In this document: positions 110-54,300 of the stretch, in pieces
Layout of the letters: each line of letters opens with the position of its first letter
Position numbering within the stretch: the stretch's first letter is position 1
Source: a virus
Length of the DNA: 64,000 nt
Virus record (IMG/VR): IMGVR_UViG_3300003323_001324
Location: 93,578 to 157,577 of that record
Direction: 5' to 3' (one strand)
Made by a program: the position numbers and the translations under genes
The notes under the pieces: generated by a model
The model's database searches: none
Seen by the model: only the letters and a program-made list of their open reading frames with translations
Told to the model about the DNA's origin: nothing

Positions 110-3100
110 ATGACCATCGGACCGTTCACGACCTACGCGCCGCCCGGAGTCTACACCCAGACCATCGTGGACCCCGTTGTGGGGCAGCTGCTCGGAGGCC
201 TCCGGGTCCCGGTCATCATCGGCGTTGGACAGGAGACCCTGACCCAGACGGACGTGGAGATGATCCGCGGCTCCTCGAGCTTTGCGGACACGCCGATCTT
301 CGGCGAGGACCCTACGGGCCGATGGGTCGTCGGCGGCACGGCGAACAACCCGATCCTCGGTCAGCAGGACGGGAGCCGCGCCTCGTTCCGCGTCAGGAAC
401 TACCCGATCGTCACGGGCGAGGGTTCCGGCAAGACGAACTACGACGTCTCGAAGGTCTCGGTCTCGGTCAACGGTCAGCAGACGGTGGTCGCGCAGTGCG
501 ACGGCCTGAACGGCATCATCTCCCTGCTCGTCCCTCCCGGCCCGAACGACGTTGTCTCGGTCAACTACTTCTTCCACCGCAAGGACACCCGCATCACCGA
601 CAACGTGTCGGCGCAGGTGACCTCCGGCCCCGCGGTCCTCGTCACGCCGAAGGCGGAGACCTACGAGATCCAGGCTGACGTCAACGACCTCCTCGAGGTC
701 TACGTCAACGACTCGACCTCCGTCTCGACCGTCAAGCTCACGCCCGGCACCCGCTCGGCTTCCGACATCGCCAGCGACATCAACGCCGCGGCGATCTCCG
801 GCCTGACCTCCTCGGTCCACCTCGACGCGGAGGGCCTCGCCCACGCGCAGCTCGTTGCCCTCGGCAACGTCCGCATCGGCTCCGGCGCCGCCAACGGCAT
901 CCTGGGCTTCAACCCCGGCGACTACACCGGCCGCAACAGGACCTTCCGCGTCTTCAACGGCCCGATCGTCGACGGCTCGGACGGCGGCATCACCACCACC
1001 GACACGACCAAGGTCGTCGTCATGGTGAACGGCCTGCAGGTCGTCCCGTCCTCGGTCGACGGCGCCAACAGCGACGTCACCCTTCCGTTCGCCCCGAACG
1101 ACGGCTCCATCGTCACGGTCCAGTACTGGTTCAACACCTGGCAGGACACGTTCGACTACCTGCCGAACTCGAACGTCGTGTTCGTCGGCAACGTGGGCAT
1201 CGCCCCCGGCCGCCGCGACTACCTCAACGGCCCCGACTTCGTCATCGTCAACGACGGCGACCAGTCCAAGATCGTGTGGGGCACCTCGTGGCAGGTCGTG
1301 GCCGGCGACACCACCGGCTCCACCCCGTTCGACTCCACCCAGGTCGTCGGCATGCTGGTGGACAACCGGATCTTCGGCGTCCCCGTCTCCCGCTACACCG
1401 ACCCGACCACGAACACGGTCTCGACGACCCGCTTCGTCCTCCCGCTCCAGGCCACGACCGGCAACGGCCGCGATACGCCCCTCGGCACCAGCCTGTACCA
1501 GACGATCACGAACGGCCGCATCGACCTCCCGACGAACCGCCCGGACCTCGTCACCGTGTACGTCGGCAAGAGCTTCCGCGACGCGTACGCCCGCCCGCCG
1601 GTCACCGTGCTCGAGGTCGACTCGGCGACGAACATCATCACCCTGAAGGACCCGGTCCCCGCGGACCTGGCCGCCTTCGCGACCTTCTGGTACAGCACGC
1701 TCCAGGAGGACACCTACACCCTCGAGGTCGCGACCCCCGGCCCGAGCGGCGTCGGCAAGTACACCATCCGCTCGCAGGCGCAGAACAACGCGCTCTTGTA
1801 CGGCATCAAGTTCGGCACCAAGACCGCCCTCCCGCAGAGCGTCCAGTGGCCGAGCGGCGTGCAGAACGTGCCGGACGCGATCCACTACGGCGGCCACCCC
1901 GTCGCCGAGACGGTCACCGTCCAGTTCCTGACCTCGCTCCTGCCCGCCTCCCACGCGTCGTTCTCGAACGCCGAGTCAGACCCGTACGACATCTACACCT
2001 ACACCCGCGTCTTCGGCGGGATCGTGGTCGACGGCAACGCCCCGGTCTCGGTGGACCTCTCTACGGCCTTCAAGGCGCAGCTGCTCAGCCAGCCCGTCAC
2101 GACCCCGTTCGCGGCCCTCCCGTCCACCGCCCGCCTGGTCCTCCAGATCGACGGCGTGACCATCACCGTGAACCTGAGCGGCCTGACCTCGGTCTCGGCC
2201 GTCGTCTCGGCGATCAATTCGGCCGTCGACGCCGACGCCCAGGCCCACGCCGACGGGAGCTCCACGTTCGCCACCACGGCCCCGAACAACCTGGCCTCTT
2301 CCGTCACCTACGGGACGGAGGAGCTCCTCAAGGTCGTCGGCAGGAACGTCAAGTCGGCCACGAACGGCCTGCTCTCCAACGTGAAGGTCCTGTCGCCGAC
2401 CGCGGCAGGCCAGACCAACGGCGCGGCGGCCCTCGGCCTCTCGCCGAACCTGGAGAGCCTCGGCTCCTACAACGCCCTGAACGAGCCGGCCCAGCTCGTC
2501 GGCACCAAGACCGGCGCGTACAACATCTCGGCCGGCATCAACGACCTCTTCCTGTTCGGCATCGACGGCCAGAGCTACTCCGCGCAGCTCCCCGCCGGCA
2601 CCGCCGTCCCGGTTCAGGCCGTCGTCGACTACATCAACGCCGGCTACGCCGCCACGGCCCCCGCGGCCGACAAGGCGACCATCCTGGCCGCGGCGGTGAC
2701 CCTCGGCAACGAGATCAAGTCGGACTACAACAACCACCGCACCGCGGTCGGCGTCCACGTCTCGGACGACTCGACGAACATCGTGACGGCGACGAACGCG
2801 ACCGACCTCGCGACGCTGCTCACCCTGTGCGCCGACATCCGCTCGAAGTACCACGCCCACATCGCGAGCACCGTGTTCCACCTCGCGGCGGACACGGAGC
2901 ACACGATCTCCGAGCCCGCCCCGACGGACCTCGCCTCCGCCGTGCGCTTCCTGTACGCGGCCAAGACCGCCTACAACGCGCACATCGCGGACACGACCTA
3001 CCACCAGATCGCGGACGGCTCGAACGCCACCTCGGCCTCGAACGCCCAGGTCGCGGCGCGCGTCGGCCAGGGCGCCCAGGCCGGCCTCGTCGTCCTGGAC

Positions 3101-4777
3101 TCCAGGGTCAACACGGTCTCCTCGGTGGTCACGGCCTCGGCCCTCGGCACCGCGAACACCGTCCTGGGCTTCACGCCCGGCGCCACCTCTCTCCGCCGGC
3201 AGCCCACCGCGTCCCTCATCGCCGCCGCCCTCAACGCCAGCTCGGGCTTCGCGGCCCTCGCCGCCGCGTGGGGCATCCTGGCCCCGGGACTCGGGAACTT
3301 CCTGCGGATCGACTCCCTCACCGCGGGCTCGACCTCGACCATCACGTTCACGAACGTCGGCAACACGACCTTCGTGCCCGACACCGGCATCGGGATCGTC
3401 CCGGGCACGAGCGGCGACTCCGGCGAGGCGGCCCAGTCTGGCTTCCGGGTCTCGAGCTCGGCCCCGGGAGGGTCCTCCGGCACCGGCATCCCCGGCCAGA
3501 CCTACACGGACGCCGTCACCGGCCTGCGCTTCACTGTGCTGCCGCCGACCGCCGGCGACTACGCGGACGGCGGATCGTTCACCCTGATCGTCGACTCGAC
3601 GATCACGGCGGACGCCTCCATCCCGGTCCGCTGCATCCCTGGCCTGGAGATGACGGTCTACAACACCCTCGGCACCGCCGTGGAGACGACCGCCCTCCTG
3701 ACGACCTACGGCAGGAGCGGCAATGAGCCGGCCGTGGGCGACATCTACTACATCAGCTACCAATACGCCAAGACGAGCCTGGCCACCAAGCTCTTCCGCG
3801 ACAAGAAGGCGATCCGCGCCAACTTCGGCCCGCCGACCCCCGACTTCCCGCTGTCGCTGGCCGCCTCGGTGTCCCTCGACAACGGCGCGGTCCTCATTGG
3901 CCTGAAGCAGGTCCTGAAGGCCCCTGGCACGTCCCAGGCCTCGACGGCCTCCTTCAAGGCCGCCATCGACGAGCAGCGCAGCCCCATCGAGGGCTCCGTG
4001 AAGCCGGACGTCATCACCCCGCTCGGCACCGATCCGGAGATCTTCGGCTACCTGAACCAGCACTGCGTGTTCATGTCGTCCCCGCGCCAGGAGGGCGAGC
4101 GCATTGGCGTCGTCGGCCCGGCCGCCGGCACGAACCCGCTGGGCGTGACCTCCATCGCCCAGGGGCTCGCCTCCGAGCTCATGGTGGTGTCCTACCCCGA
4201 CTCGTACGTCCTGTCGGTCCAGGACGCGAACGGCAACACGTTCGACCAGCTGGTGGACGCGACCTACATGGCCGCGGCCCTGGCCGGCTCGTCCTGCAAC
4301 CCGTCCGTGGACGTCGCCACGCCCTGGACCCGCCGCCAGGTCTTCAACTTCAAGAAGCTCGGCCGCGTCCTCGACCCGACCGAGGCGAACCAGGTCGCCG
4401 TCTCCGGCGTCACGGTCATCGAGCAGGTCGACGCCGGGATGCGCGTCCGCCACGGCCTGACGACGAACGTGAGCAACGTGATCACGAGGACCCCCTCGGT
4501 CACGCTGACCATCCAGTACGTCCAGCAGTCCATCCGCCGCGTCCTCGACCCGTACATCGGCCAGAAGTTCACGGGCTCGCTGATCAAGACCGTGGAGAAC
4601 GCCCTCGTCGGCCTCTTCTCGACGCTCATCGACCAGCAGATCGTGACCAAGGTCGCCGGCATCGCGGTCTCGGTGGACGAGGACGACCCGACGATCATGC
4701 GCACCGAGGCGATCTACGTCCCGGTGTTCCCCCTCGAGTACATCACCTCGACGCTCCAGGTCCGCATCAGGATCTGA
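110..4777 (+). CDS. Contractile tail sheath protein, very large (1555 aa) with inserted accessory domains
   Basis: N-terminal PPGVY motif. Sheath-type C-terminus (VRHGLTT...YVQQSIRRVLDPYIGQK...YVPVFPLEYI). SD-like AGGAG upstream and strong GC3 bias. Confidence 0.9.
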   Translation: MTIGPFTTYAPPGVYTQTIVDPVVGQLLGGLRVPVIIGVGQETLTQTDVEMIRGSSSFADTPIFGEDPTGRWVVGGTANNPILGQQDGSRASFRVRNYPIVTGEGSGKTNYDVSKVSVSVNGQQTVVAQCDGLNGIISLLVPPGPNDVVSVNYFFHRKDTRITDNVSAQVTSGPAVLVTPKAETYEIQADVNDLLEVYVNDSTSVSTVKLTPGTRSASDIASDINAAAISGLTSSVHLDAEGLAHAQLVALGNVRIGSGAANGILGFNPGDYTGRNRTFRVFNGPIVDGSDGGITTTDTTKVVVMVNGLQVVPSSVDGANSDVTLPFAPNDGSIVTVQYWFNTWQDTFDYLPNSNVVFVGNVGIAPGRRDYLNGPDFVIVNDGDQSKIVWGTSWQVVAGDTTGSTPFDSTQVVGMLVDNRIFGVPVSRYTDPTTNTVSTTRFVLPLQATTGNGRDTPLGTSLYQTITNGRIDLPTNRPDLVTVYVGKSFRDAYARPPVTVLEVDSATNIITLKDPVPADLAAFATFWYSTLQEDTYTLEVATPGPSGVGKYTIRSQAQNNALLYGIKFGTKTALPQSVQWPSGVQNVPDAIHYGGHPVAETVTVQFLTSLLPASHASFSNAESDPYDIYTYTRVFGGIVVDGNAPVSVDLSTAFKAQLLSQPVTTPFAALPSTARLVLQIDGVTITVNLSGLTSVSAVVSAINSAVDADAQAHADGSSTFATTAPNNLASSVTYGTEELLKVVGRNVKSATNGLLSNVKVLSPTAAGQTNGAAALGLSPNLESLGSYNALNEPAQLVGTKTGAYNISAGINDLFLFGIDGQSYSAQLPAGTAVPVQAVVDYINAGYAATAPAADKATILAAAVTLGNEIKSDYNNHRTAVGVHVSDDSTNIVTATNATDLATLLTLCADIRSKYHAHIASTVFHLAADTEHTISEPAPTDLASAVRFLYAAKTAYNAHIADTTYHQIADGSNATSASNAQVAARVGQGAQAGLVVLDSRVNTVSSVVTASALGTANTVLGFTPGATSLRRQPTASLIAAALNASSGFAALAAAWGILAPGLGNFLRIDSLTAGSTSTITFTNVGNTTFVPDTGIGIVPGTSGDSGEAAQSGFRVSSSAPGGSSGTGIPGQTYTDAVTGLRFTVLPPTAGDYADGGSFTLIVDSTITADASIPVRCIPGLEMTVYNTLGTAVETTALLTTYGRSGNEPAVGDIYYISYQYAKTSLATKLFRDKKAIRANFGPPTPDFPLSLAASVSLDNGAVLIGLKQVLKAPGTSQASTASFKAAIDEQRSPIEGSVKPDVITPLGTDPEIFGYLNQHCVFMSSPRQEGERIGVVGPAAGTNPLGVTSIAQGLASELMVVSYPDSYVLSVQDANGNTFDQLVDATYMAAALAGSSCNPSVDVATPWTRRQVFNFKKLGRVLDPTEANQVAVSGVTVIEQVDAGMRVRHGLTTNVSNVITRTPSVTLTIQYVQQSIRRVLDPYIGQKFTGSLIKTVENALVGLFSTLIDQQIVTKVAGIAVSVDEDDPTIMRTEAIYVPVFPLEYITSTLQVRIRI

Positions 4778-7235: not shown

Positions 7236-8330
7236 TCAGAACGTCCGGTCGATCTCGAACCCGACGTACCCGACGCCTATGCCGACCGCCGACCCGCGGT
7301 CGACCACGATCTCGTAGACCTTGTCCGAGGACAGGAACGAGACCGGCGCGGACGAGTACTTCGCGAGGCTCGACCCGCTGACGGGGAGGGTAGCCACCCC
7401 GGCCCCGCCGTCCGTGACGCTTCTGACCGACACGAACCCGGTCCCGGAGACGCTGCGGTTCGCCATGGCAACCAGCTTTACCGAGAGCGCGGCCCCGCTC
7501 ATCCGGTAGTTGTCGGGGTTGAACGACTGGGCCCCGGCGACGACCGCCCCGCTGGCCGTGTTCGTCAGGCCACCCGCGAAGATCGGGAGGTCGCTCCTCA
7601 GGAGCTGGCCCGGAGCGAACCCGGCGCCCCTCGGGCCCGTGGCCCCGGGGAGCCCCGCCGGCCCCGTGGTGCCGAAGCCCGCCGGCCCCGTCGCTCCGCG
7701 CGGCCCTGTCGGCCCCGGGGCCCCGCCCCCTGTCGGGCCCTGAGGCCCGATGGCGCCCTGCGGGCCCGTCGGCCCCGGCGGCCCCTGCGGCCCCGGGTTG
7801 CCGAACGGGCCGGTCGGCCCCTGGCCTCCGGCCGGCCCCGTCGTCCCCGGCGATCCCTGGAACCCTCGTGGGCCCGTGGGGCCCTGTGCGCCCGTCGGGC
7901 CCTGGACGCCCGTGGCGCCTGTCGGCCCCGGAGGGCCTCCGTACGGCCCGGTGGCGCCCGCCGGCCCCGTCGGCCCGCGGGCTCCCTGATCCCCCTGGTT
8001 ACCCTTCTTCCCGACGTTCCCCTGAGGCCCGGGAGGGCCCATGAACTGGAGAAGGAGCGGGTCCCTCGTCCCGACCTTGACCAGCCGGATCGCGAAGGAG
8101 TAGGCGTACAGGGCCGTGAACGGCTGGGTGACCTCGGAGAGCGTGATCTGGCTGAGGAACCACGACTTCGGGTCCAGCCCCAGGGTTGAGTATATCTGCG
8201 AGAAGACCTTCGGGTCGTTCACCGCCGTGAGCGGGTTCGCCAGGATGGCGTCCGTGTTGAGCAGGACGTACGCGGCAACGACGTTGCTGGCGTCTGACGG
8301 GAGCTTCTCTACGCCTACGGTGAACGTCAT
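7236..8330 (-). CDS. Collagen-like protein with N- and C-terminal globular domains
   Basis: Central Gly-X-Y run (GPPGPQG...GATGPRG). TAGCGT box 6 nt upstream of the ATG. Confidence 0.8.
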
Positions 8331-9127: not shown

Positions 9128-9202
9128 CGCGCCCGCCAGTATCGTGTTCGGGGCCAGATTTCCGGGCCGAAGGATGGTAGGCTTGTTTTGTCCCCTACGC
9201 GC

Positions 9203-10693
9203 ATGAGTCTGTCCAGGGTCGCTGCTTACCTGAGCTCCCTCGCCCCGGCCGAGTACCGGGTGTCGGACGCCGCCGCGGGGGTGGTGAACTACCTCCTGGA
9301 CTCCTATTTCCAGAAGGTGGACCAGAGGCACGCCGCGGCGGACGCGGGCCGCCGCCCCGTCCCCTACGACCTCGTCGCCTACATCAAGGAGCTCTGGCTC
9401 GGCGCGGAGGTCCACAACTGCCTCAGCCTCTCCCAGGGCTACCCCGCCTACGCCAAGAGCCTCAACGCCTGGGCCTTCTCCCGCCTCTTCTCCGCCTTCG
9501 CCGGCCCCGAGGCCCCGTACGACATCGTCCCCTTCCTCGAGAGCTACGAGTGGAAGGAGGCCGTCAAGGGCGAGTTCAAGATCGAGTCGGAGCAGCTGAA
9601 CGTCAGCCTCACCGAGTCGGCCACGATCCCCGTCTTCGGGACCTTCTTCGTGCGGCACCGCGTCACCGGCGCCCAGCTCGTCGTGAGCTGCGACTTCTGC
9701 TTCTACCGCAACGGCTGCCTCGTCTCCGTGATGTCGAACCCCGCCAACCAGGCGGACGCCGAGCGCTTCTACGCCGACCTTCACGCGTCGATGCGCACGA
9801 ACGACATCTACCTCAACCGGTGCCTCTCCTTCGACAAGGGGAAGCTGGACTTCTTCGGCATCAAGCCGACCTCCTGGGGCGACGTCATCCTCAAGGACGA
9901 CAAGAAGCTCCAGATCCGGGACAACACGGTCGGCGTCCTGTCGAACATGTCGGCCCTCGCGTCCGTCGGCATGATCCCGAACCGGAACGTCATCCTCATT
10001 TCCCCGCCCGGCATGGCGAAGACCACCATGTTCCGGGCCACGTCGGACGAGATCGAGGGCTCCGCCACGCGCATCTGGTGCACCGGCAAGTCCATTCTCT
10101 ACCCCGACCACGTGACGGCCATGTTCGAGGCCGCCCGCTCTCTGGCCCCCTGCATCATCTTCATCGAGGACATGGACCTCTTCGGCGGCGACCGCAACAC
10201 GCTCGGCCGGGACAGCTCCGTGCTCAACGAGTTTCTCGCCCAGCTCGACGGGGCCCAGGCCAACTCCGGCATCGTGGTGATGGCCTCCACCAACGACATC
10301 GCCTCCATGGACGAGGCCCTCGTGAACCGGCCCGGGCGCTTCAGCGTGAAGGTCGAGATCCCCTACCCGGACGACGAGGACCGCCGCCTCATGCTCCGGA
10401 AGTTCATGGGGTCCCTCAACGTCGTCCCGGACCAGTCGGTCACCCCCGACACCATCAAGACCGTCATCGACATGTGCGACGGCTTCACGGGCGACTACGT
10501 CAAGTCCGTGGTCGAGGCCGCTGTCATCCGGGCCGTGGCCGCCCGCAGGTCCGAGGGCGGGAAGGTGACGGTCAACTCCGACGACCTCATCTCGGCCGTC
10601 GAGCAGGCCCTGCAGAACTTCAAGATCGGCAAGAAGGCGAAGAAGCACATCCAGGTGGACGTCGCCCTTCAGGACGAGAAGATGCCGGGCTGA
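9203..10693 (+). CDS. Classic-clade AAA+ ATPase (single AAA module, FtsH/Cdc48-like)
   Basis: Variant Walker A SPPGMAKT, Walker B IIFIEDMD, sensor-1 MASTN and SRH/Arg fingers DEALVNRPGRF. Confidence 0.88.
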   Translation: MSLSRVAAYLSSLAPAEYRVSDAAAGVVNYLLDSYFQKVDQRHAAADAGRRPVPYDLVAYIKELWLGAEVHNCLSLSQGYPAYAKSLNAWAFSRLFSAFAGPEAPYDIVPFLESYEWKEAVKGEFKIESEQLNVSLTESATIPVFGTFFVRHRVTGAQLVVSCDFCFYRNGCLVSVMSNPANQADAERFYADLHASMRTNDIYLNRCLSFDKGKLDFFGIKPTSWGDVILKDDKKLQIRDNTVGVLSNMSALASVGMIPNRNVILISPPGMAKTTMFRATSDEIEGSATRIWCTGKSILYPDHVTAMFEAARSLAPCIIFIEDMDLFGGDRNTLGRDSSVLNEFLAQLDGAQANSGIVVMASTNDIASMDEALVNRPGRFSVKVEIPYPDDEDRRLMLRKFMGSLNVVPDQSVTPDTIKTVIDMCDGFTGDYVKSVVEAAVIRAVAARRSEGGKVTVNSDDLISAVEQALQNFKIGKKAKKHIQVDVALQDEKMPG

Positions 10694-11951: not shown

Positions 11952-13772
11952 TCAGAGCACCTCGTACTGGAAAGAGTAGCAGAAGCCGACCGGGGTCGTC
12001 CCCTCCGTCAGAGGCCGGTACCTCCACTTCGTCATCGCGCTCCGGAACGCCGGGACGAGCGCGGGCGTCCGGGGGCTCGTGACGCTGACCGACGTCGGGG
12101 CCCCGTTGGTCCCCACGCACATCCTGACGCTCGCCTGGAACGGCCCCATGTTCTCTATCGCGCTCGGTATCTGGGGCCGATAGGGCGCGACCGTCGGGCT
12201 TATCGTCAGGCGACGGTGTCCCTCGGAGGAGGACAGGGACCTCGGCCCCGCAGGAGGGGCCTGAGGGTCGAGCATCGTCTCGAAGGGGGTCTTCGACCGC
12301 GGCGCCGTCTTCGGCGGCGGCGCGATGGCGGCCGCCACCGTCGGCGCCGCTGGCGGGGCCGTGTGAGCCTCTTCTACGGGAGCCGGCACCTCCTTCTGCG
12401 CCGGCTCGACCGCCGGGGCCACGCTGGGCTCGGCCTTCTGGACCCTCTCCGCCGTCCGCCTCGCGGCCGGCGCCTGCGGCGCGGGCCTCTCCTCCGCGGC
12501 GGGTTGCGGGGCAGGGGGCGGCTGGACTATCACGGTCCGGACCTCTCCCGGGAGGTACACCGTCTTCTCGACGACCTCCTTCTCCTTGTACAGGTAGGCC
12601 ACGGGGACGAGCAGGGCCATCGGCACGAATATGATCCCCATGACCCAGAACAGGGCCTTCCGGATCTCCCCCATCGTGTCGACCGGGGCCTCCGGCGGCC
12701 TTGACCTGGTCTGGACCCTGGAGACGTCCGGGGAGCTCCGCTCCGCAATCTCCTCGGCCGCCTTGATCTGCGCCGTCGTCTCGCTTATCCGGTCCGACAG
12801 GAGCCTCTCCAGGTACTCCTGGATCTCCCGCTCGATGCCCGGCTCGAACGCCTCCGGGACCGCGGCCTCGAGCGCCCGGAGGACCTCCTCGGCCCCCGAG
12901 TACCTCTTGTCCCTGTTCTTCTCCAGGGACTTCATGACCACCTTCTCCAGCTCCTCCGGGTAGAAGTCCGTCATGTCCGACGGGAGCATCGGCGGCTTGT
13001 CGGAGATGATGCGCGCCAGGATCCCGTCGGGGGTCCCCGCGACGTCGCGGAACGGGTGGGACCCCGTGGTCGCCATGTAGAGCATGACGCCGACGGCGAA
13101 GACGTCCACCCTCCGGTCCACGGTCTGCTGCATCAGCACCTCCGGGGCCAGATAGGACAGCTTCCCCTTCAGCTCCCCCGCCTGCGTCATAGCCGCGCTG
13201 GTGGAGGCCTTCGCTATGCCGAAGTCCAGGAGCTTGGCGACGCCCCCGTACGTCACTATGACGTTCCCCGGGGTCACGTCCCGGTGCACCAGCCCCAGCG
13301 GCCGGCCGCCCTCGTCCACGAGGTCGTGGGCCGCCTGCAGGCCGCGGCACACCTGCCCTATGATGTTCACCGCCACCTTGAGCGGGAGGCCGCCGGCCGC
13401 CTTCGCGGCCTTGAAGAGGCCGAGGAGGGTCTCCCCGCGCACGAGCTCCATGGCGAGGTAGCACACTCCCCGGTGCTCTCCGAAGTCCTCTACGGCCACC
13501 ACGTTCGGATGGTGGATCATCGACGCGAGCCTGGCCTCCTGGAAGAGCATGTCCTCCATCCGCGCCTCCTCGTGCTCTGACGCCAGGATCGTCTTCACGG
13601 CGAGGAGCCTCTTGAAGCCCCTTCCGCCCTTGGCGCGGGCGACCCACACCCTCCCCATGCCTCCCTTCGCCACGGGCGTCAGGAGCTCATAACGGCCGTC
13701 GAGCACGGTCCCCGTCGCCAGGTCCGACTCCGACATCTTTTCCCGGACGTTCTCGGTCTTGGTTGTCTCCAT
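11952..13772 (-). CDS. Hanks-type Ser/Thr protein kinase with TM helix, Pro/Ala linker and C-terminal TonB-C-like domain
   Basis: GGMGRVW, AVK, HRDVTPGN, DFG, YLAPE, DVFAVG. TM segment ALFWVMGIIFVPMALLVPVAYLY. C-terminus VRMCVGTNG...AMTKWRYRP...PVGFC. Start at ATG 13772 with a GGAG SD. Confidence 0.92.
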   Translation of the reverse strand: METTKTENVREKMSESDLATGTVLDGRYELLTPVAKGGMGRVWVARAKGGRGFKRLLAVKTILASEHEEARMEDMLFQEARLASMIHHPNVVAVEDFGEHRGVCYLAMELVRGETLLGLFKAAKAAGGLPLKVAVNIIGQVCRGLQAAHDLVDEGGRPLGLVHRDVTPGNVIVTYGGVAKLLDFGIAKASTSAAMTQAGELKGKLSYLAPEVLMQQTVDRRVDVFAVGVMLYMATTGSHPFRDVAGTPDGILARIISDKPPMLPSDMTDFYPEELEKVVMKSLEKNRDKRYSGAEEVLRALEAAVPEAFEPGIEREIQEYLERLLSDRISETTAQIKAAEEIAERSSPDVSRVQTRSRPPEAPVDTMGEIRKALFWVMGIIFVPMALLVPVAYLYKEKEVVEKTVYLPGEVRTVIVQPPPAPQPAAEERPAPQAPAARRTAERVQKAEPSVAPAVEPAQKEVPAPVEEAHTAPPAAPTVAAAIAPPPKTAPRSKTPFETMLDPQAPPAGPRSLSSSEGHRRLTISPTVAPYRPQIPSAIENMGPFQASVRMCVGTNGAPTSVSVTSPRTPALVPAFRSAMTKWRYRPLTEGTTPVGFCYSFQYEVL

Positions 13773-13864
13773 TCTCCGACCCTCTCGACTTTGGCGGTCT
13801 CCTAACCGCCTTTTCGTCGTCCCGTGCCCTATCCGGCCCCTTCGCGGACTTCCGGCCCGCGCCC

Positions 13865-14098
13865 CTACCGGTCTTCCCACACCATGCTGTAGGGCGTCCT
13901 CTCGTTACCGCACTCGCACCTCGGCGCCTCGAGCCCCCTGGCCTCGCCGACGGCGAAGGGGACGGAGGCCGTGAGCACGCGCCCGCACTCCCCGCACGGG
14001 GCCGAGAACGGCTCCATCCCGAACCTTCTCCTCCACGCCTCGGGGTCGGCCCCGTGCAGCAGTCTCAGCCACCTCGTCCGGGTGAGGACGAGGCGCAC
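13865..14098 (-). CDS. Small Zn-ribbon protein
   Basis: CGECG...CECG motifs. Confidence 0.5.
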   Translation of the reverse strand: MRLVLTRTRWLRLLHGADPEAWRRRFGMEPFSAPCGECGRVLTASVPFAVGEARGLEAPRCECGNERTPYSMVWEDR

Positions 14099-15320: not shown

Positions 15321-16730
15321 ATGTCCATGAAGTACGCGGCCGAGAGGGTGGAGGACGGCCACTACGTCCTCCCGAGGATGACCGGGACGGCCATGAGGGT
15401 GGAGGCCCACGCCTTCCTCTCCGACGCCCTGTACGAGGCCTCGGAGGAGGGCATGTGGCAGCAGCTCGCGGCCGCAGCCTCCTACGAGGGCGTGACCGGA
15501 GCGTACGCGATGCCGGACTGTCACCTCGGCTACGGCGTCCCCGTCGGTTGCGTCGTCGTGACCGACGACGTCATCATTCAGGCGGCCTCCGGGTACGACA
15601 TCTCCTGCGGCGTCCTCTACATGCGGACGAGCCTGACCGCCGCGGACGTCGCCGACCCCGAGCGCCGTCGGTCCTGGATCCAGGCCGTCGAGAAGCGGAT
15701 CGCGACCGGCGTCGGGTCCTCTCGCCCCGACCTCATGCCGAAGTTCAACGTCAGGGCCCAGGAGGACATCCTCCGCTACGGGGCCCGGGCTATGGGCGTG
15801 TCGGCGGACCTTTGCGAGCGCCAGTACATCCCCGTCCCCGAGGACCTGGACCTCGACGCCATCGAGAAGGCCCGGTCCAAGGTCGGCGACCAGCTCGGGT
15901 CCGTCGGCGGCGGCAACCACTTCGTCGAGATGCAGGTTGATCGCGACTCCGGCGAGGTGTTCGTGATGGTCCACTGCGGCTCGCGCGGCTACGGCTGGCA
16001 GACCGCGAACCACTTCTTCTATAAGGGCGCCGAGCTGCGAGAGCTCCCCATGAACCGTCGCGAGGACTCTTGGGTCCGGGCGGACGAGCCCCTCGGCAAG
16101 GAGTACTGGGCCTACCACAACTCGGCCGCGAACTTCGCCGTGGCCAATCGCCACGTCATCGCGAAGGGAGTCGCCAGTTCCCTCCAGGAGGTCTACGGGG
16201 CCGAGTCCTCCGTCTACTACGAGATCTCCCACAACCTCGTCCAGAGGGAGACCCTCGTCCTCCCCGACGGGACGACGAAGAGGGGCTTCGTCCACCGCAA
16301 GGGCGCGACGCGCGCCTTCCCCGCCGGCCACCCCGACCTCGTGGGGACGGCATGGGAGGAGACCGGCCACCCCTGCCTCATCCCTGGCTCCATGTTCCAC
16401 GGCGCCGCCGTCCTCTTCGCCGAGCCAGGATCTCACAAGTCCGCCTGCTCCGTGAACCACGGATCGGGCCGCGTCCTCGGCCGCGGCGCCGCCAAGCGCG
16501 CCCTGGAGTCGAGGCAGGGCGAGATAAACGACGAGATGCGGGACGTCGTCCGGACCTTCGGCGGCGTCCCGGTCAAGGGCATCCTCACCAACACCCGCGA
16601 CGTTGTGCTCGACGAGTGCGGGCACGTCTACAAGGACCTGGACGCCGTCCTCGACACGCTCTCTCAGGCCGGCATCGCCCGCGTGTCCCGTCGTCTCTAC
16701 CCCGTCGCCAACATCAAGGGCGCCGACTAG
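15321..16730 (+). CDS. rtcB: RtcB-family RNA ligase (3'-P or 2',3'-cyclic-P to 5'-OH)
   Basis: MPDCHLGYGVPVG, DISCG, GGGNHF, HCGSRG, HN, HRKGAT, PGSM, NHGSGR and YKD motifs are all present. Confidence 0.95.
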   Translation: MSMKYAAERVEDGHYVLPRMTGTAMRVEAHAFLSDALYEASEEGMWQQLAAAASYEGVTGAYAMPDCHLGYGVPVGCVVVTDDVIIQAASGYDISCGVLYMRTSLTAADVADPERRRSWIQAVEKRIATGVGSSRPDLMPKFNVRAQEDILRYGARAMGVSADLCERQYIPVPEDLDLDAIEKARSKVGDQLGSVGGGNHFVEMQVDRDSGEVFVMVHCGSRGYGWQTANHFFYKGAELRELPMNRREDSWVRADEPLGKEYWAYHNSAANFAVANRHVIAKGVASSLQEVYGAESSVYYEISHNLVQRETLVLPDGTTKRGFVHRKGATRAFPAGHPDLVGTAWEETGHPCLIPGSMFHGAAVLFAEPGSHKSACSVNHGSGRVLGRGAAKRALESRQGEINDEMRDVVRTFGGVPVKGILTNTRDVVLDECGHVYKDLDAVLDTLSQAGIARVSRRLYPVANIKGAD

Positions 16731-46374: not shown

Positions 46375-49300
46375 ATGACGACGGCCCCGAGGATAAACTA
46401 TTTCGACGGATCCGGGGACACCGACTCCCTGCAGGTCACGACCAACATCTCCTCCGTCGTCCTGACCGGGACCGTCGGCCAGAACGTGGTCGACGTCCAG
46501 ATCAACGTCAACGGCGCCGGGTTCGTCTCCGACCCATCCCTCGTCGACCTGGCGCTCCCGGGCTTCACCGTCCCGAACCTCGCCGCCTACCCCGGCGGCC
46601 TCGTCCTCGAGCGCGGGCGGAACGTCATCCAGCTCCGCTCCGTCGACCTCTCGGGCTCCGTCAGCCCTCCCTCGACCGCCGTCCTCGACGTCGTCTCCCA
46701 GTCGGACCTGCAGACCGTCCTCGCGCCGCCGACCGGGGTCCTCCTTCAGAGGAACGCCAAGAGCGTCCAGGTCCAGTGGTCCAACTTCTCCCCGGACGAG
46801 CCCACGGGCTACAACGTGTACGCCTCGACCGGGGCCGGCGGCTCCGGGTCCGGGTACCTTCGCGTCAACGCGGAGACCATCCCCTACAACTCCCCGACGA
46901 AGATCGAGGAGGTCGCCTTCGACCTGTTCTCCTCGCAGACGACGTTCGACAACCCCGACTCCTCCGACCCGTTCCTGACGGCGGCCTCGAACTTCGACAC
47001 CGTCGACCTCCTCCTCTCCTCGGACCTCGTCGCCTCGGCCACCGGCCAGGTCATCGCCCCCGTATCGAGGACCAGGGCCCCGCTCGGGTCGGACCCGAAG
47101 TACAGGCTCTCGGTCGCCGTGCAGTCCGTCCGGCAGACGAGCTTCTTCAGCTTCGTCCACGACCGCAACGACGGCATCACCAACGGGATCCTGAACAACG
47201 ACGTCTTCTCCGTCGTCGACCCGGAGGACCCCCTCTACTACGTGGTGACGGCCGTCTACTTCGACAAGGCGACGGGCCAGCTCCAGGAGAGCCGCTACTC
47301 CGCCGAGATCCCGGGGGCCCCGCTCCCCCTCGACACGACCGTCCGCGGCATCCGGATCCGCGAGCAGAACGTTATCGTCCGCGACTATATCATGGAGGTG
47401 AACGAGGCGGAGCCCGCGCTCGCCCTCATCCCCGCCTCGACCGTCCGCGAGGTCCACATAGAGCCGTTCGGGAACGAGGTCCAGAAGGCCTACTTCCTGA
47501 TGGACTTCGTCCACCGCGGCAAGTCCTTCGCGGCCATGCTCCAGGTCGACGACCCGAACCTGACCGGGACGAGCGTCCCCGTCTCGGACTCGGGCTACAA
47601 GCAGAACCTCAAGTCTGCCCTCTCGCTCTCGAGCGACGCGGCCGTCCAGTCCCTCATCGACGGGTCCTTCGACTCGCTCTCCGCCAACTTCGGCGTCCCC
47701 CGCCTCGGCCGCCGGCCGGCCCAGGTCTACCAGACCTTCTACACGACGTCCCTCCCGACGAAGGACCTCGTGGTCGCCCAGGGCGCCATCGTCTCGTCGT
47801 CGACGAACAGCTCTGCCCCGCGCTTCGTGACGAGCGGGTCCATCTCCATCCTCGCCTCGAACGCCCAGGCCTACTACAACCCGAACACCCGGCGCTACGA
47901 GGTCAAGATCCAGATGGTGGCCGAGACCCCGGGGTCGCTCGGCAACGTCCCGGCCGGGGACCTCGACACCGTGGTCTCGGGGGCGGACGGCCTGCAGACC
48001 GTGAACGAGACGGCCGCCGACTTCGGCCGCGACCGGCAGAGCAACCTCGAGCTCTCCGAGGTCGCCTCCCGCAAGCTCTACTCCCTCGACGCCGGGACCC
48101 AGGGCGGCTACGAGATGACCGCCGTCGGGACCCCGGGCCTGCTCGAGGTCCTCATCGTCAAGTCCGGGGACCCCGACATGATGCGCGACTACGACCCGGT
48201 GCGCATGAAGCACATCGGGGGGAAGGTCGACGCCTGGGTGAAGGGGACCATCGAGAGGACCGTCACCGAGACCTTCGCGTTCCAGTTCACCGTCGCCAAG
48301 AACGTCCGGTTCGACGTCGTCGACGCCGTGAACCTCGTCTTCCGCGCCCGCGACTCCCGCCTCACGGAGTCGAACCCGATAGACGAGATGCTCTACAACC
48401 CGTCCCAGGGCCTCGGCCTCCGGAACCACTCCAACACCCCGGTGACGGAGTACGACCTGACCGGGGTCGAGCTGGTCGACTATCGGACCATCAGGCTCAA
48501 CACCTCCATCCCCCAGCCCCCGACGCTCCTGGACGACTTCGTCGAGGGCGACTACCGCTACCGGAGCAACAACCGCTTCACGGCCACGGTCCAGCCCGTC
48601 ATGCGCGTCACGTCCGTCGTCGGCGAGGTCTCCGGCCCGCTCGACCCCGACGACGGGTACGAGCTCTACAAGCTCCAGGACCCGCTCCTCGAGGGCGAGT
48701 CCACCATCGCCACGGACTTCGTCGAGATCACCCAGGTCAACGGGGTCCCGTCCGGCAACTCCGTGCCGGTCAACGGGGAGGCGCATGTCCTCATCGGGCA
48801 GTTCGAGGAGCCCCTCGACTCCGTCGGCGTCAACACCTTCACGCTCCGCGTCTACAGCGCGGACAGGTCCGTCGAGTTCAGGGGCCCGAACCTCCCCGAC
48901 CCGGACTTCCTCGTCGTCGCGGGCTCGCAGACCACTCCCCTCAAGATCGTCCGCTCCACCCTCTCGAACATCGAGAGCGGCCAGGCCGTCTCGGTCGACT
49001 ACGAGCACGACGAGAACTTCCAGGTCACCTACGTCGTCAACGACGTCCTGCAGCAGCTCCAGCAGCGCTACAACAAGATGCGGCACGTCACGGCCGACGT
49101 CCTCGCCAAGCAGTCGGTCGAGAACCGCATGTCGGTCGAGTCGACGGTCCAGCTCGCCCCGAACGCGGACCAGGCCTCGACCGACTCCCAGATCCGGACC
49201 AACATCACCGTCCTGACGGACTCGAAGGGGGTCGGCGGGTCCGTCCGCCAGTCGGACGCCGTGTCCGTCATGGACCGACCGGGCGGGGTCGACTTTCTCG

Positions 49301-49842
49301 TCCAGCCCTTCACCAGGTTCACGCTCGCGGACGGGGCGATGCGCGTGCGCGACGAGGTCCTGTCGGACTACGTGGTCCTCCCCTCCCTGAGCCAGTTCTC
49401 CAACCAGGTCTTCCTCCTGACCCAGGCCCTCCCATTCGACACCTCGGACGGCGGGGGCGGGCCGACCGTCCATCACGGCGTCTACAAGGACGAGCTCATC
49501 ATGGCCCAGGCCACGTCCCTCGAGGACGTCGGGACGGCCGTGAACAAGTCCTGGATCATCGGCAGGCTCGGCGCCGTCATCCCCGGGTACAGCGACGACA
49601 CCACCCTCCTCCCCGTCTACCTGACCCAGGAGGCGGTCGTCGCGGCCCGCATCCGCCTCACCGCGAACCGGGTGGTCGTCTCCCTGAACGCGGGCCTCGT
49701 CCCTCCTGACGTCCCGACGGCCCACTCCTTCGCCGCCACCTACATCGTGAGCGGCGACCGCGGCGTCAAGGACCTGGAGACCAGTCAGGTAGAGTACCTG
49801 ACTCCCGGCGACATCGTCCTGACCTACAGGAGCGCCACTTGA
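46375..49842 (+). CDS. Baseplate J/gp6-like wedge protein
   Basis: LSANFGVPR, AETPGSLGNVPAG, VN..A.FGRDRQSN.EL, GT.GGY and GGKVDAWV motifs. Confidence 0.8.
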   Translation: MTTAPRINYFDGSGDTDSLQVTTNISSVVLTGTVGQNVVDVQINVNGAGFVSDPSLVDLALPGFTVPNLAAYPGGLVLERGRNVIQLRSVDLSGSVSPPSTAVLDVVSQSDLQTVLAPPTGVLLQRNAKSVQVQWSNFSPDEPTGYNVYASTGAGGSGSGYLRVNAETIPYNSPTKIEEVAFDLFSSQTTFDNPDSSDPFLTAASNFDTVDLLLSSDLVASATGQVIAPVSRTRAPLGSDPKYRLSVAVQSVRQTSFFSFVHDRNDGITNGILNNDVFSVVDPEDPLYYVVTAVYFDKATGQLQESRYSAEIPGAPLPLDTTVRGIRIREQNVIVRDYIMEVNEAEPALALIPASTVREVHIEPFGNEVQKAYFLMDFVHRGKSFAAMLQVDDPNLTGTSVPVSDSGYKQNLKSALSLSSDAAVQSLIDGSFDSLSANFGVPRLGRRPAQVYQTFYTTSLPTKDLVVAQGAIVSSSTNSSAPRFVTSGSISILASNAQAYYNPNTRRYEVKIQMVAETPGSLGNVPAGDLDTVVSGADGLQTVNETAADFGRDRQSNLELSEVASRKLYSLDAGTQGGYEMTAVGTPGLLEVLIVKSGDPDMMRDYDPVRMKHIGGKVDAWVKGTIERTVTETFAFQFTVAKNVRFDVVDAVNLVFRARDSRLTESNPIDEMLYNPSQGLGLRNHSNTPVTEYDLTGVELVDYRTIRLNTSIPQPPTLLDDFVEGDYRYRSNNRFTATVQPVMRVTSVVGEVSGPLDPDDGYELYKLQDPLLEGESTIATDFVEITQVNGVPSGNSVPVNGEAHVLIGQFEEPLDSVGVNTFTLRVYSADRSVEFRGPNLPDPDFLVVAGSQTTPLKIVRSTLSNIESGQAVSVDYEHDENFQVTYVVNDVLQQLQQRYNKMRHVTADVLAKQSVENRMSVESTVQLAPNADQASTDSQIRTNITVLTDSKGVGGSVRQSDAVSVMDRPGGVDFLVQPFTRFTLADGAMRVRDEVLSDYVVLPSLSQFSNQVFLLTQALPFDTSDGGGGPTVHHGVYKDELIMAQATSLEDVGTAVNKSWIIGRLGAVIPGYSDDTTLLPVYLTQEAVVAARIRLTANRVVVSLNAGLVPPDVPTAHSFAATYIVSGDRGVKDLETSQVEYLTPGDIVLTYRSAT

Positions 49843-50375
49843 CCGAGTACATGATCGTCGAGACCTACGCGAACACCCTGTATGAGGGTCACCGGTGCCA
49901 CAGGTACTGGGTGCCCGGAGGCTTCTTCATCATGGTCGGCGGCTCCCTCCTCGGGCCCGAGGACTGGGAGCACCTCCGGTCCGAGTACGGCATCACTCAC
50001 GTCATCAACGTCGAGACGGAGCACGACGATGCCGGGAAGGTGCCCCCAGAGCGCCTGTGCCAGGCCCGCGTCCCCGACGACGGGACCCCGTTCCCGGCGG
50101 CGAAGGTCCTGGCCGCCTGCCTCTTCGCCGCCGAGAAGGTGGCCAACGCCCCGGCCGGCGAGGATCCGCGCTTCTACGTCCACTGCCAGATGGGCGGCTC
50201 CAGGAGCCCCGCGTTCGCCTACGCCCTGATGCGCGCGGTGTTCGAGATGTCCGCCGAGGGCGCCCTGGCGGCCATCCGGGGGACCCACAAGTCCGACTAC
50301 GGCCACCACGACTTTCACAAGTCGTATATAGCCAGCGTCGAGGCGGCCCTCGCCCCGGTCTTCGGGGGCGGCTGA
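49839..50375 (+). CDS. Dual-specificity (PTP-superfamily) phosphatase
   Basis: HCQMGGSRS (CX5R P-loop), GITHVINV and a putative acid loop VPDDG. Confidence 0.88.
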   Translation: MTEYMIVETYANTLYEGHRCHRYWVPGGFFIMVGGSLLGPEDWEHLRSEYGITHVINVETEHDDAGKVPPERLCQARVPDDGTPFPAAKVLAACLFAAEKVANAPAGEDPRFYVHCQMGGSRSPAFAYALMRAVFEMSAEGALAAIRGTHKSDYGHHDFHKSYIASVEAALAPVFGGG

Positions 50376-51303: not shown

Positions 51304-54300
51304 ATGGCTGTCGAAAGATTCTCTAACCTCGCGCAGACCACGATCGCCACCGGCGGCGGCATCTCGCCCGTGGCGCTCACCTTCGACGTCGCGAGCGCGG
51401 CCCTCTTCCCGGGCGCGCCGCAGTTCCGCATCCGGATCGGGGACGAGCTCATGCTCGTCACCGGGGTCTCCGGGAACACCTTCACCGTAAAGCGCGGCAT
51501 CGAGGGGACGACCCCGGCCGCCCACGCGTTCGGCGACACGGTCACGCACATCCTGACCGCCGGCGCGATGAGCCAGTTTGCGTTCGACCTGACCGGCCTC
51601 ACCGGCCCGGCCGGTCTCCAGGGCTCCCCCGGCCCCCAGGGCATCCAGGGCTCGCCGGGCGTGACCGGCGCCACCGGCCCGAAAGGGACCACCGGGCCCG
51701 CGGGCCCGCAGGGCGCCCAGGGTCCGACGGGGTTCGTCGGGGCCACCGGGTCCACCGGCCCGCAGGGGCCGACCGGCCCCAAGGGCGACCAGGGTTCACC
51801 GGGCTCCACCGGCGCCACCGGCCCGCAGGGTCCGACCGGCCCGTTCGGCGGACCGCCCGGCGCGACCGGCGCCACCGGCCCGCAGGGTCCGACCGGCCTC
51901 GCGGGCTCCCAGGGCTCCCCCGGCCCGACCGGCCTCCAGGGCTCCCCCGGCGTGACGGGCCCCCAGGGCGTCCAGGGCGCGACCGGCGTCGCCGGCCCTC
52001 CCGGACCGTTCGGCCCGACGGGTCAGCAGGGCAACCAGGGCTCCCCCGGCGTCGCCGGACCCACGGGCCCGGCCGGCCTTACTGGCGCCACCGGACCCCA
52101 GGGCTCCCCCGGCGCCACCGGGCCTACCGGCCCGCAGGGCTCCCCCGGCCTCGCGGGGGTCACCGGCCCTCAAGGCCCGACCGGACAGCGCGGTCCGACG
52201 GGCGCGACCGGACCCCAGGGCTCCCCCGGCGTGACGGGCCCCCAGGGCGTCACTGGCCCGTTCGGTGGCCCGCCCGGCGCCACGGGCCCCCAGGGCCCGA
52301 CCGGACCCACAGGCCCGCGCGGCAGCACCGGAGCGACCGGCCCCCAGGGGCCGACGGGGGCCCAGGGTGTCCAGGGCGTGACCGGGTCTACCGGCCCGGT
52401 CGGCCTCACCGGCGCCACCGGCCCCGCCGGCGCCACCGGCCCCGGCTTCACCGGCCCTCGAGGCGACACCGGAATCCAGGGCCCGACCGGCCCGACCGGC
52501 CCGCAGGGCCCGACCGGCCCCGGTTTCACCGGTCCGACCGGACCGCAGGGGGCGACCGGAGCCACCGGCCCGGTCGGCTTCACCGGCCCTCAGGGGCCGA
52601 CGGGCCCCCAGGGCGTCACCGGCCCCACCGGCGCCCAGGGCATCCAGGGCGCCACCGGCGTCGGCGCCACCGGCGTGATGGGCATCTATCAGGTGCGCCA
52701 GCACGGGGTCGAGTTCTTTCCGGCCGCCCTCTGGCAGCTCGACGGGAACCTGCTCGACATCTTCGGTAGCTCGAACCTGTCCGTCGCCTCGGGCGTCCAG
52801 AACTATAGCGAGGTAGGCCCAGGCCTACGCGGGTTCTCCTTCGACGGCTCCCAGAGCCTGAACGGCCCCAACACGCTCGGCTTCACCGGCCCGATGTCGT
52901 TCGTCGGCGTGATGAACCTTCCGGACGTGGGGACCGGGATCTTCCCTCTCATCGCGTTCGGCGGGCCGAGCGAGGACCCCGGAGACAACCTCCAGTACGA
53001 GGTCTCCTTCGACGCCGCGAGCAGGTACGCCCGTTATCGCTCCGAGTCCGGCGGGGGCACTGACAACGTCTCGGTCGCCACGGGCGTCCGCGCCCCGCTC
53101 GGCCAGCCCTTCCACTTCGGCCTCACGAGGAGCGCCGCGGGCGTCCTCGGCTGGTACCTGAACGGGAAGCTCTACGCGACCGGCCCGTCCGTCGCGGCGG
53201 ACGGAGGACAGAGCGGCTTCTTCCGCCTCGGCGGCCAGGTCGACGGCCCTGCCGTCCTCCCGCCCGGCGCGGTAGTCGCCTCCGCCAAGGTCTTCCCGTC
53301 CGAGCTCTCCGTCCAGAACGTCTACGACGAGTATAGCAAGACCGTCGGCGCCGTCTTCATCGGTTACACCGGCGCGCAGGGTATCCAGGGCGCCACCGGC
53401 CTCCAAGGCCCCCAGGGCGCCACCGGCCTCACCGGCCCCCAGGGCAACGTGGGCTCCCCCGGACCGACCGGCGCCCAGGGCCCGCAGGGCCCCATGGGTC
53501 CTGCCGGCCCCACCGGCGCCGGCGTCCAGGGCTCCCCGGGACCGGCAGGGCCGACCGGTCCTGCCGGCGCCACCGGCGCCGGCATTCAGGGCTCCCCGGG
53601 ACCGGCCGGACTCACTGGCGCGCTCGGCGTATACCAGCTCCGTCCGCACGACACTACCTACAGCCCCGTCGGGCTCTGGCAGCTCGACGGTAGCCTGGCC
53701 GACTCCTCGGGACTCGGCAAGAACCTGACCGTCGCCTCCGGCATCGAGAACTACACGGAGGTCGGACCCGGGATGCGCGGGTTCTCCTTCGACGGCCTCG
53801 AGTTCCTCAGGAGGAGCGTCCACGACCCCGAGCTCTTCATAACCGGCGCGATCACCATCGAGGGCGTCATTAGGCTCCCGAACCCCGTGTCCGCGGCCGT
53901 CCCTCTCGTCAGTCACGCGGGCGTCGGAGAAGGCTCGAGTGACAACGAGGTCTACGGGGCGGCCTTCGCCGGGACGACCCGCTATCCGCAGTTTCTCTCC
54001 GAGTCCGGAGGCGGCGTCGACGCGCAGACCGTGGCCACCGGCGTCGTGGCCCCCGTGGATGAGCCGTTCCACTTCGCGGTCGTCCGCGACGCGGGCCTCA
54101 ACCTCGCCTGGTACATGAACGGCAGGCTTTACGCGACGGGGGCGGCCGCTGCCGTCAACGGCGGTCAGAGCGGCGTCTTCAAGGTTGGCGTCTTCGCCGA
54201 GCAGGCGACCGGCGCCCCAAGGAACCTTGTCGTCGCCTCTCTCAAGGTCGTCCCGACCTCCCTGTCACAGGACGCGATCTACGGCGAGTTCCAGCGGACG

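Follow-up and report, generated by a model that had tools for sequence, protein, structure and literature searches.

A virus-borne clade of predicted receptor-type Ser/Thr kinases with a TonB-like C-terminal domain and its cellular relatives in Polyangiaceae-type myxobacteria

The DNA analysed here (the window) is a stretch of 64,000 nucleotides, the last 64 kb of the 157,577-bp IMG/VR virus record IMGVR_UViG_3300003323_001324. The record is a linear fragment that CheckV rates as ~37% complete, which implies a full genome of roughly 400 kb if this value is taken at face value. On its minus strand the window carries a gene for a 606-aa protein, P0002, which was predicted from its sequence to be a catalytically competent, membrane-anchored Hanks-type Ser/Thr kinase, and which ends in a domain assigned to the TonB_C fold. 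Judging from the homologues, the kinase family is common to Polyangiaceae-type myxobacteria and their large phages. We propose that P0002 serves the phage as an auxiliary kinase for signalling or takeover, and that contact with transporters of the outer membrane sets its position or activity; to this reading we give a probability of about 0.55.

Gene structure and predicted topology of P0002

The open reading frame (ORF) of P0002 begins with an ATG at 13772 and runs over 606 codons to the stop at 11952–11954. The N-terminus of the homologues coincides with this Met, and an upstream in-frame GTG at 13880 was rejected as the start because the homologues begin at the equivalent Met. The G+C content at third codon positions (GC3) of the gene is 0.91, similar to that of the adjacent phage genes, and the G+C content in the window ranges over 62–74%. 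A sigma-70 promoter scan around the kinase gene found nothing, and the single terminator-like hairpin near it (13793–13810, plus strand) was no better than those of shuffled sequence. The gene and the parts of its product were delimited as follows:

11952–13772 (−), whole gene, receptor-type Ser/Thr kinase with C-terminal TonB_C (P0002), from the ORF and its translation
12873–13697 (−), Hanks-type kinase domain, cytoplasmic, aa 26–300, from Pfam, PHROG and PDB matches, motifs and AlphaFold2 (AF2)
12678–12872 (−), juxtamembrane helices, cytoplasmic, aa 301–365, from AF2 and conservation
12588–12677 (−), single transmembrane helix, aa 366–395, from Kyte-Doolittle analysis and AF2
12228–12587 (−), Pro/Ala-rich spacer, periplasmic, aa 396–515, predicted to be disordered or extended, from composition and predicted local distance difference test (pLDDT) scores
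11955–12227 (−), TonB_C domain, aa 516–606, with the Cys pair C552/C598, from family profile, AF2 and Foldseek

The full-length AF2 model, built from an alignment of 54 relatives, was confident for the kinase and the helical juxtamembrane region up to about residue 345 and for a globular end at about 511–606. The sole hydrophobic segment of the protein (19-residue Kyte-Doolittle windows above 1.6 start at aa 370–378, with a maximum of 2.4) coincides with one long predicted helix at 366–395, in line with the single transmembrane helix named in a preliminary description of this gene made from the sequence. The Pro/Ala linker that the same description placed behind the helix is present, and its length (396–515, ~120 aa) is slightly above the claimed ~100 aa. 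The pLDDT is below 50 over most of 396–502, and the 100 residues at 441–540, which comprise the distal spacer and the start of the C-terminal domain, contain 21% Pro and 19% Ala. P0002 would thus adopt an N-in/C-out topology, with the kinase and the juxtamembrane region facing the cytoplasm and the C-terminal domain directed toward the outer membrane, and the ~120-aa spacer is probably long enough for crossing the periplasm.

An intact Hanks-type kinase domain

The Pfam Pkinase model (PF00069) matched aa 30–298 with E = 1.3e-34 and 120.3 bits (cut-off 31.7), and the catalytic set of P0002 is complete: GGMGRV at 37–42, K60, E79 of alpha-C, D165 of the HRD motif, N170, D183 of the DFG motif and APE at 209–211. 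K60, E79, D165, N170 and D183 are invariant across the 54 relatives. The kinase is therefore intact, as had been claimed, and the motifs quoted in support of that claim (GGMGRVWVAR, RGFKRLLAVK, PLGLVHRDVTPGN and GELKGKLSYLAPE) are all present in P0002. PHROG 2361, annotated as serine-threonine kinase, matched aa 17–305 (E = 2e-43), and the nearest solved kinase structures were PknA (E = 8e-41) and PknB of M. tuberculosis, staphylococcal PknB and pneumococcal StkP (to E = 2e-30). The pLDDT of the kinase domain is mostly 80–98. The NCBIfam model PknB_PASTA_kin aligned to aa 21–397 with 233 bits, well under its equivalog cut-off of 450.

In the juxtamembrane region AF2 placed helices at 306–309, 313–324, 326–345 and 349–353. 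Across 54 sequences, viral as well as cellular, L301, A308, F309, E340 and E344 of this region do not vary at all, and R328 and R332 hardly vary.

Assignment of the C-terminal domain to TonB_C

Since the phage sequence alone falls under the Pfam cut-off for TonB_C (PF03544, 17–18 bits and E = 0.004–0.008 versus a cut-off of 24.6), an alignment of the last 110 residues from 60 relatives was used as family-level evidence. PF03544 was matched by 57 of the 60 aligned relatives (best E = 9e-10), and the profile of all 60 found solved C-terminal domains of TonB from E. coli, Pseudomonas and others in the PDB at E-values of 1e-5 to 1e-3. The AF2 model of the phage C-terminal domain had a pLDDT of 89.4, and when it was compared with the PDB by Foldseek, TonB-family C-terminal domains made up 15 of the 17 best matches, with 6i97_D (P. 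aeruginosa TonB bound to FoxA) at the top (TM(target) 0.70, rmsd 2.0 Å). Eleven positions are invariant in viral and cellular members, including the W-x-Y-x-P motif and both C552 and C598 (60/60). Family-level sequence evidence and the predicted fold together indicate that the C-terminal domain of P0002 is a TonB_C fold, so that the TonB-C-like end with a Cys pair, which the preliminary description had recognised, stands. Judged from the TonB fold, C552 and C598 would sit on the first and last strands, and a periplasmic disulfide between them is likely.

The link to the gliding proteins GltG/GltJ that had been drawn from this domain was not borne out. The NCBIfam GltJ model (NF033761) reached only 15.2 bits against a cut-off of 450, and this match lay on the transmembrane helix and the low-complexity spacer (aa 359–515). 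The nearest paralogue of the C-terminal domain is instead the operon-encoded TonB of the host.

Paralogy to the host TonB and lack of energy-coupling features

Each of five Polyangiaceae-type genomes (7.5–10 Mb) contains 2–4 copies of the C-terminal domain subfamily at E ≤ 1e-5. Per genome, 1–2 of these copies end open frames of 634–695 aa, which is the size of the kinase fusion, and the rest end proteins of 249–284 aa. Two of the short proteins were examined; in both, an N-terminal transmembrane segment carrying S-x3-H leads via a poly-Pro spacer to the same Cys-pair domain, and their genes are followed directly by exbB, exbD and exbD. These tonB-exbB-exbD-exbD operons, found in Polyangiaceae-type metagenome-assembled genomes (MAGs) at L088 4343–7745, where a TPR protein precedes the operon, and at L090 4456–6977, are the canonical TonB systems of such genomes, and the disulfide-locked TonB domain appears typical of the lineage. 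In one genome the tonB operon lies ~4 kb from a kinase gene. The C-terminal domain of cellular kinases is 42–49% identical to that of the host TonB, the domain of the phage clade represented in the window is 34–41% identical to the host TonB, and between the C-terminal domains of the phage protein and the cellular kinase P0058 the identity is 43%. The subfamily has 1186 representatives at E ≤ 1e-10 in a library of 1.84 billion, 48 of which reach E ≤ 1e-30, and it occurs there also in proteins of TonB size, in long fusions of other kinds and in proteins with multiple repeats.

By these comparisons, the sensor of the kinase family is a duplicated copy of the docking domain of cellular TonB, and its ligand class is therefore most likely the Ton-box strand of TonB-dependent transporters. 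The features that couple TonB to energy are a different matter. The transmembrane helix of P0002 contains neither a His nor S-x3-H, in contrast to that of the host TonB, and a transmembrane His is absent in 89 of 94 family members. No exbB or exbD was found beside the cellular kinase genes (L004, L005). As S-x3-H is lacking in the transmembrane helix and ExbB, ExbD and TonB-dependent receptors were not found in the 157-kb viral record, P0002 would be an unenergised TonB mimic rather than a working TonB.

A viral clade beside a widespread cellular family

Full-length homologues of P0002 on other contigs showed 75%, 59%, 58% and 59% identity, and the three that were checked were all phage-like. 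A search of 5.8 billion proteins returned hundreds of ~600–690-aa proteins combining Pkinase and TonB_C, labelled Polyangiaceae, Myxococcales or Myxococcota. When one genome per prokaryotic species was scanned, full-length matches came only from MAGs labelled Polyangiaceae, Sorangium or Myxococcota; elsewhere only the kinase domain was matched. Two of the cellular copies, P0058 on an 885-kb contig and P0015 on a 243-kb contig, lie in ordinary chromosomal surroundings. The resemblance to myxobacterial kinases noticed earlier was thereby extended to the whole protein, the nearest cellular homologues being those of Polyangiaceae/Sorangium-type Myxococcota MAGs.

A maximum-likelihood tree was computed for the kinase region and rooted with outgroups (62 rows, LG+C20 PMSF). 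In it, all TonB_C-bearing kinases united with a support of 100/98. The 30 cellular kinase–TonB_C sequences formed one clade (100/100), and 15 sequences including P0002 formed its viral sister clade (UFBoot 97, SH-aLRT 84), which is separated by a stem of 0.55 and a shared branch of 0.14. The two sister clades, viral and cellular, are each monophyletic with respect to the other, and the tree is thus compatible with a transfer in either direction between host and phage. Contexts were checked for 9 of the 15 viral members and all nine were phage-like, with dense small ORFs, hardly any family matches and phage-specific families; the contigs of P0016, P0029 and P0075 were phage-like on context check. 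Full-length identity between the viral clade and the cellular proteins is 40–43%, thus the kinase gene is no recent insert. Going beyond the preliminary description, these relationships indicate that the kinase–TonB_C architecture is a common cellular one in Polyangiaceae and that the phage copies form an old clade of their own.

Six viral sequences (P0007–P0012) lack TonB_C and keep the kinase, the transmembrane helix and a Pro-rich tail. As they are nested within the viral clade (98/92), the loss of TonB_C was secondary. An LDPW motif occurs in 6/6 of them and a C-terminal tail of the form [YP]IR[RK][DE]L in 5/6 (e.g. L007 10001–11536), and this may be a short linear motif replacing the docking domain. 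No conserved partner gene was found beside the kinase across the viral lineages. Stand-alone response-regulator receiver genes lie 2–9 kb from the kinase at L006 11667–12284 (−), at L098 1757–2128 (+) and on the P0008 contig, and on this last contig an integrase adjoins the kinase. Large myxophages may carry several host-type signalling parts. The taxonomy of the homologues, together with a G+C content of 65–74% across 2-kb windows, is a clue to a Polyangiaceae-type Myxococcota host.

Selection on the regions of the protein

P0002 was compared region by region with its sister phage copy (dS ~0.6–0.8). The dN/dS ratio was lowest in TonB_C (0.11) and the kinase domain (0.16), followed by the spacer (0.27), the juxtamembrane helices (0.29) and the transmembrane helix (0.50, from 27 codons). 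Amino acid identity to the sister phage was 65% in the spacer versus 83–85% in the folded domains (85% in TonB_C). Both folded domains are under purifying selection and are maintained in phages.

Phage context and authenticity of the locus

The window encodes a gp6-like baseplate wedge protein (46375–49842) and a collagen-like tail fibre (51304–55047, plus strand) that matched many PHROG tail-fibre families with a best E of 4e-129. The 93 kb upstream of the window consist mostly of ORFans, with a weak TerL ATPase match, glycosyltransferases and a transglycosylase. The same gene order around the kinase was found in L001, a 43-kb contig of an unrelated assembly, which carries a 75%-identical kinase and shares the RtcB gene, the AAA ATPase, a 170-aa ORF (88% identity) and the 386-aa and ~1190-aa genes with the window. 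The kinase copies of 58–59% identity occur in another but equally phage-like setting (Phage_phiTE_072, DUF6094 giants and runs of small ORFans). The gene is phage-borne, as described earlier: the virus record that carries it also encodes a baseplate wedge protein, tail fibres of collagen type and a giant protein resembling a sheath. Given the synteny in an independent assembly it is not an assembly chimera, a possibility that the preliminary description had raised.

Related sequences are scarce in phage collections. Megablast of 11 kb around the kinase gene against GenBank phages gave only a 43-bp match in RtcB and no related cultured phage, and tblastn against 50,697 GenBank phage records found kinase-domain matches only, at ≤38% identity and with ≤47% of P0002 covered. 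Scanning IMG/VR with the alignment of the viral clade yielded one distant match of 31%, so that the clade is nearly absent there besides the window's own record. Across the 157-kb record (~37% complete), no FHA, PP2C, response regulator, second TonB_C, ExbB, ExbD or TonB-dependent receptor was found, and ARAGORN detected no tRNA or tmRNA genes in the same 157,577 bp.

Several other genes of the record deserve mention. Two genes from the kinase lies an RtcB RNA ligase gene (15321–16730, plus strand; PF01139, E = 8e-89), a linkage that is kept in L001. The 43-bp stretch at 16289–16331 within it is 97.7% identical to an RtcB-like gene of Halorubrum virus BJ1; most probably it is a segment of the active site, conserved and rich in G+C. 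An AAA+ ATPase gene (9188–10693, plus strand; PF00004, E = 1e-20), which neighbours the kinase in L001 too, gave IetA-like and TRIP13-like PADLOC matches at E = 5e-17. A second collagen-repeat protein is encoded at 7236–8330 (minus strand). The 1555-aa protein encoded at 110–4777 (plus strand) has a weak match to a tail-sheath C-terminus (E = 0.007) and, if it is a sheath, would be unusually large. Between baseplate genes, a 178-aa ORF (49839–50375, plus strand) resembles the catalytic domain of dual-specificity phosphatases (PF00782, E = 2.2e-7, 31.2 bits versus a cut-off of 33.5), and could form a phosphorylation writer/eraser pair with the kinase. Upstream of the window, a 660-aa protein (record positions 61617–63596, minus strand) contains a Transgly peptidoglycan glycosyltransferase domain (PF00912, E = 9e-46), an unusual envelope-related cargo for a phage.

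Proposed function and its alternatives

In the proposed arrangement the kinase and the helical juxtamembrane region would lie in the cytoplasm, and the Pro/Ala spacer that follows the transmembrane helix would reach across the periplasm and hold a disulfide-stabilised TonB_C at the outer-membrane side. There the domain would most likely dock by beta-strand pairing on Ton-box-type segments of TonB-dependent transporters. P0002 would bind without energy transduction, as a TonB mimic that positions or gates the kinase depending on the condition of the envelope, and during infection host, and possibly phage, proteins would be phosphorylated at the inner membrane. The gene would not be a transport component. 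That a C-terminal domain can direct a phage kinase has a precedent in the T7 kinase (PMC13645617).

Several observations weigh against this proposal. The viral subclade P0007–P0012 has lost TonB_C and kept the kinase, thus the docking domain is not indispensable for the role of the kinase. The phage domain has diverged: it has another residue in place of the Asp that hardly varies in cellular domains (D of ‘PALD’), the P0004–6 lineage has one shorter loop, and identity to the host TonB is just 34–41%. Ton-box binding of P0002 is deduced from paralogy and fold, and the probable host was assigned from homologue taxonomy and G+C content. No conserved neighbour gene hints at a substrate of the kinase, and as the record covers ~37% of the genome, the missing ExbBD or phosphatase partners are weak evidence. 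The function in phages, be it host takeover or inter-phage competition, is hypothetical, and so is the role of the cellular members. The detection of superinfection and the rewiring of motility or development signalling, both proposed in the preliminary description, are likewise conjectural, and the present data fit a general host-takeover kinase equally well.

The main alternative, possible if unlikely, is that P0002 is a device of inter-phage competition, which protects the infected cell or lysogen against other phages. TonB-dependent transporters are common phage receptors, and TonB itself is needed by some phages. TonB_C might sense adsorption or DNA entry at TonB-dependent receptors and trigger a kinase-driven abortive or exclusion response, as Stk2 or PD-T4-6 do, or it might simply occupy the Ton-box, so that these receptors cannot support superinfection. 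The general role of the transporters as phage receptors fits such a device, the AAA ATPase with IetA-like matches is a neighbour of the kinase, and the integrase beside the kinase on the P0008 contig indicates that some carriers may be temperate. The strongest PADLOC matches of P0002 were the PD-T4-6 single-gene kinase defence models (E = 4e-71, aa 19–504) and mad6 of MADS, and NCBIfam MAD6 matched too; however, the PD-T4-6 models are generic Hanks-kinase profiles that any such kinase matches, and these matches do not decide on a defence role. Moreover, none of the viral loci checked showed a defence-island context, and the kinase domain, which a pure Ton-box blocker would not need, is the most strongly conserved part in every lineage, including those without TonB_C.

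We consider it improbable that P0002 is a constitutive takeover kinase acting on cytoplasmic targets, in which the transmembrane helix, the spacer and TonB_C form an inherited membrane or peptidoglycan anchor that carries no signal. The six viral proteins that dispense with TonB_C and retain kinase, transmembrane helix and Pro-rich tail would agree with such an anchor, as would the lack of conserved partner genes. Yet in the window's lineage no part of the protein is more constrained than TonB_C (dN/dS 0.11; 85% identity versus 65% in the spacer), and the phage domain keeps all 11 family-invariant residues, both Cys included. Even the forms without TonB_C gained another conserved tail (LDPW ... 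[YP]IR[RK][DE]L, 5/6), which suggests that the periplasmic contact was replaced and is not absent.

Effectively excluded is a phage-encoded working TonB that couples to the host ExbB–ExbD and energises transport across the outer membrane (e.g. uptake of nutrients or DNA), the kinase being an appendage: the overall topology (N-in transmembrane helix, Pro-rich spacer, TonB_C) and the paralogy to the host TonB are shared, but the transmembrane helix lacks His and S-x3-H, ~365 cytoplasmic residues precede it, and exbB and exbD are missing from the record (~37% complete) and from the surroundings of the cellular kinase genes checked. The least probable explanation, likewise effectively excluded, is an artefact, that is, host chromosomal DNA mis-joined to viral sequence, or a contig of non-phage origin; the nearest cellular relatives are of host type, the record is a linear fragment and most of its genes have no family match, but the gene order is repeated in an independent assembly, GC3 is like that of the neighbours, baseplate, tail-fibre and sheath-like genes lie in the window, and the viral clade is separate, with 40–43% full-length identity to the cellular proteins.

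A more far-reaching reading seems rather doubtful, namely that large myxophages encode a trans-envelope signalling device of their own, in which the unenergised TonB mimic reads, via exposure of the Ton-box, whether TonB-dependent transporters of the host outer membrane have bound a nutrient, bacteriocin or superinfecting phage, and converts this into cytoplasmic Ser/Thr phosphorylation. If true, phosphorylation governed by transporter state might time lysis, exclude competitors or block host development, and the cellular kinase–TonB_C family would be a phosphorylation-based counterpart of FecR-type cell-surface signalling.

Comparison with known systems

The closest counterparts of P0002 are the cellular kinase–TonB_C proteins of Polyangiaceae/Sorangium type (P0058, P0015), which are annotated as ‘protein kinase’ or ‘TonB family protein’ and have the same architecture at ~600–690 aa, with ~40% full-length and 50–55% kinase-domain identity and the same invariant C-terminal residues, including the Cys pair. 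Their genes are chromosomal, with GH28, alcohol dehydrogenase, haem-oxygenase-like and histidine-kinase/response-regulator genes as conserved neighbours. The viral forms differ from them in a shorter spacer (~120 aa versus a family median of ~155), a more hydrophobic transmembrane helix, and an altered second strand and one altered loop in the domain. With TonB of E. coli and P. aeruginosa (PDB 2gsk, 1u07 and 6i97), P0002 shares the N-in transmembrane helix, the Pro-rich spacer, the C-terminal fold and W-x-Y-x-P, and with the operon TonB of Polyangiaceae also the Cys pair at 34–41% C-terminal identity. It differs from TonB in the ~365 cytoplasmic residues with the kinase before the transmembrane helix, in the lack of S-x3-H and in the lack of linked exbBD, and transduction of the proton motive force is not expected.

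The PASTA-sensor kinases of Gram-positive bacteria (PknB, PknA, StkP) are built on the same plan of cytoplasmic kinase, juxtamembrane region, one transmembrane helix and extracytoplasmic sensor, but the sensor of P0002, set in a diderm envelope, consists of TonB_C at the end of a long spacer in place of PASTA repeats. FecR-type anti-sigma factors offer a functional analogy: they are single-pass inner-membrane proteins whose periplasmic end contacts a TonB-dependent transporter and which relay its state to the cytoplasm. Their output is proteolysis and sigma-factor release, versus phosphorylation in the case of P0002, and no sequence relationship is claimed. The known phage kinases are soluble enzymes that serve takeover or anti-defence. 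The best-studied of them, the T7 kinase gp0.7 (T7K), is according to PMC13645617 a divergent and soluble enzyme restricted to phages, whose DFG-like motif is altered and whose C-terminus binds DNA; its C-terminal domain biases substrate choice. Both T7K, as portrayed there, and P0002 are phage-borne protein kinases, but P0002 has a canonical DFG, a transmembrane helix and a periplasmic domain.

The literature search found no paper on a kinase–TonB_C fusion in myxobacteria or phages, none on experiments with the cellular family, and nothing specific on protein kinases in myxophages or jumbo phages. A comparative review of jumbo phages mentions neither a protein kinase of the P0002 kind nor TonB, and the words ‘kinase’ and ‘TonB’ are both absent from a 2026 preprint cataloguing 790 myxophages. 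P0002 combines known kinds of protein, that is, receptor Hanks kinases, TonB_C domains and phage kinases, in a virus-borne clade for which no description was found.

Significance

Purifying selection in an old, purely virus-borne clade present on at least nine large phage-like contigs argues for a real role of the kinase in infection. If the proposed reading is true, a phage receptor kinase that spans the inner membrane and reaches the outer one with a TonB dock would be unlike the soluble phage kinases and would link what happens at the cell surface with phosphorylation in the cytoplasm. For a large phage that is nearly unannotatable otherwise, the gene provides a clue to a Polyangiaceae-type Myxococcota host. 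It also draws attention to the cellular kinase–TonB_C family, which is widespread in Polyangiaceae and on which no literature was found, and it leads to the testable hypothesis that the kinase-rich Polyangiaceae sense the state of their outer-membrane transporters by a duplicated TonB end.

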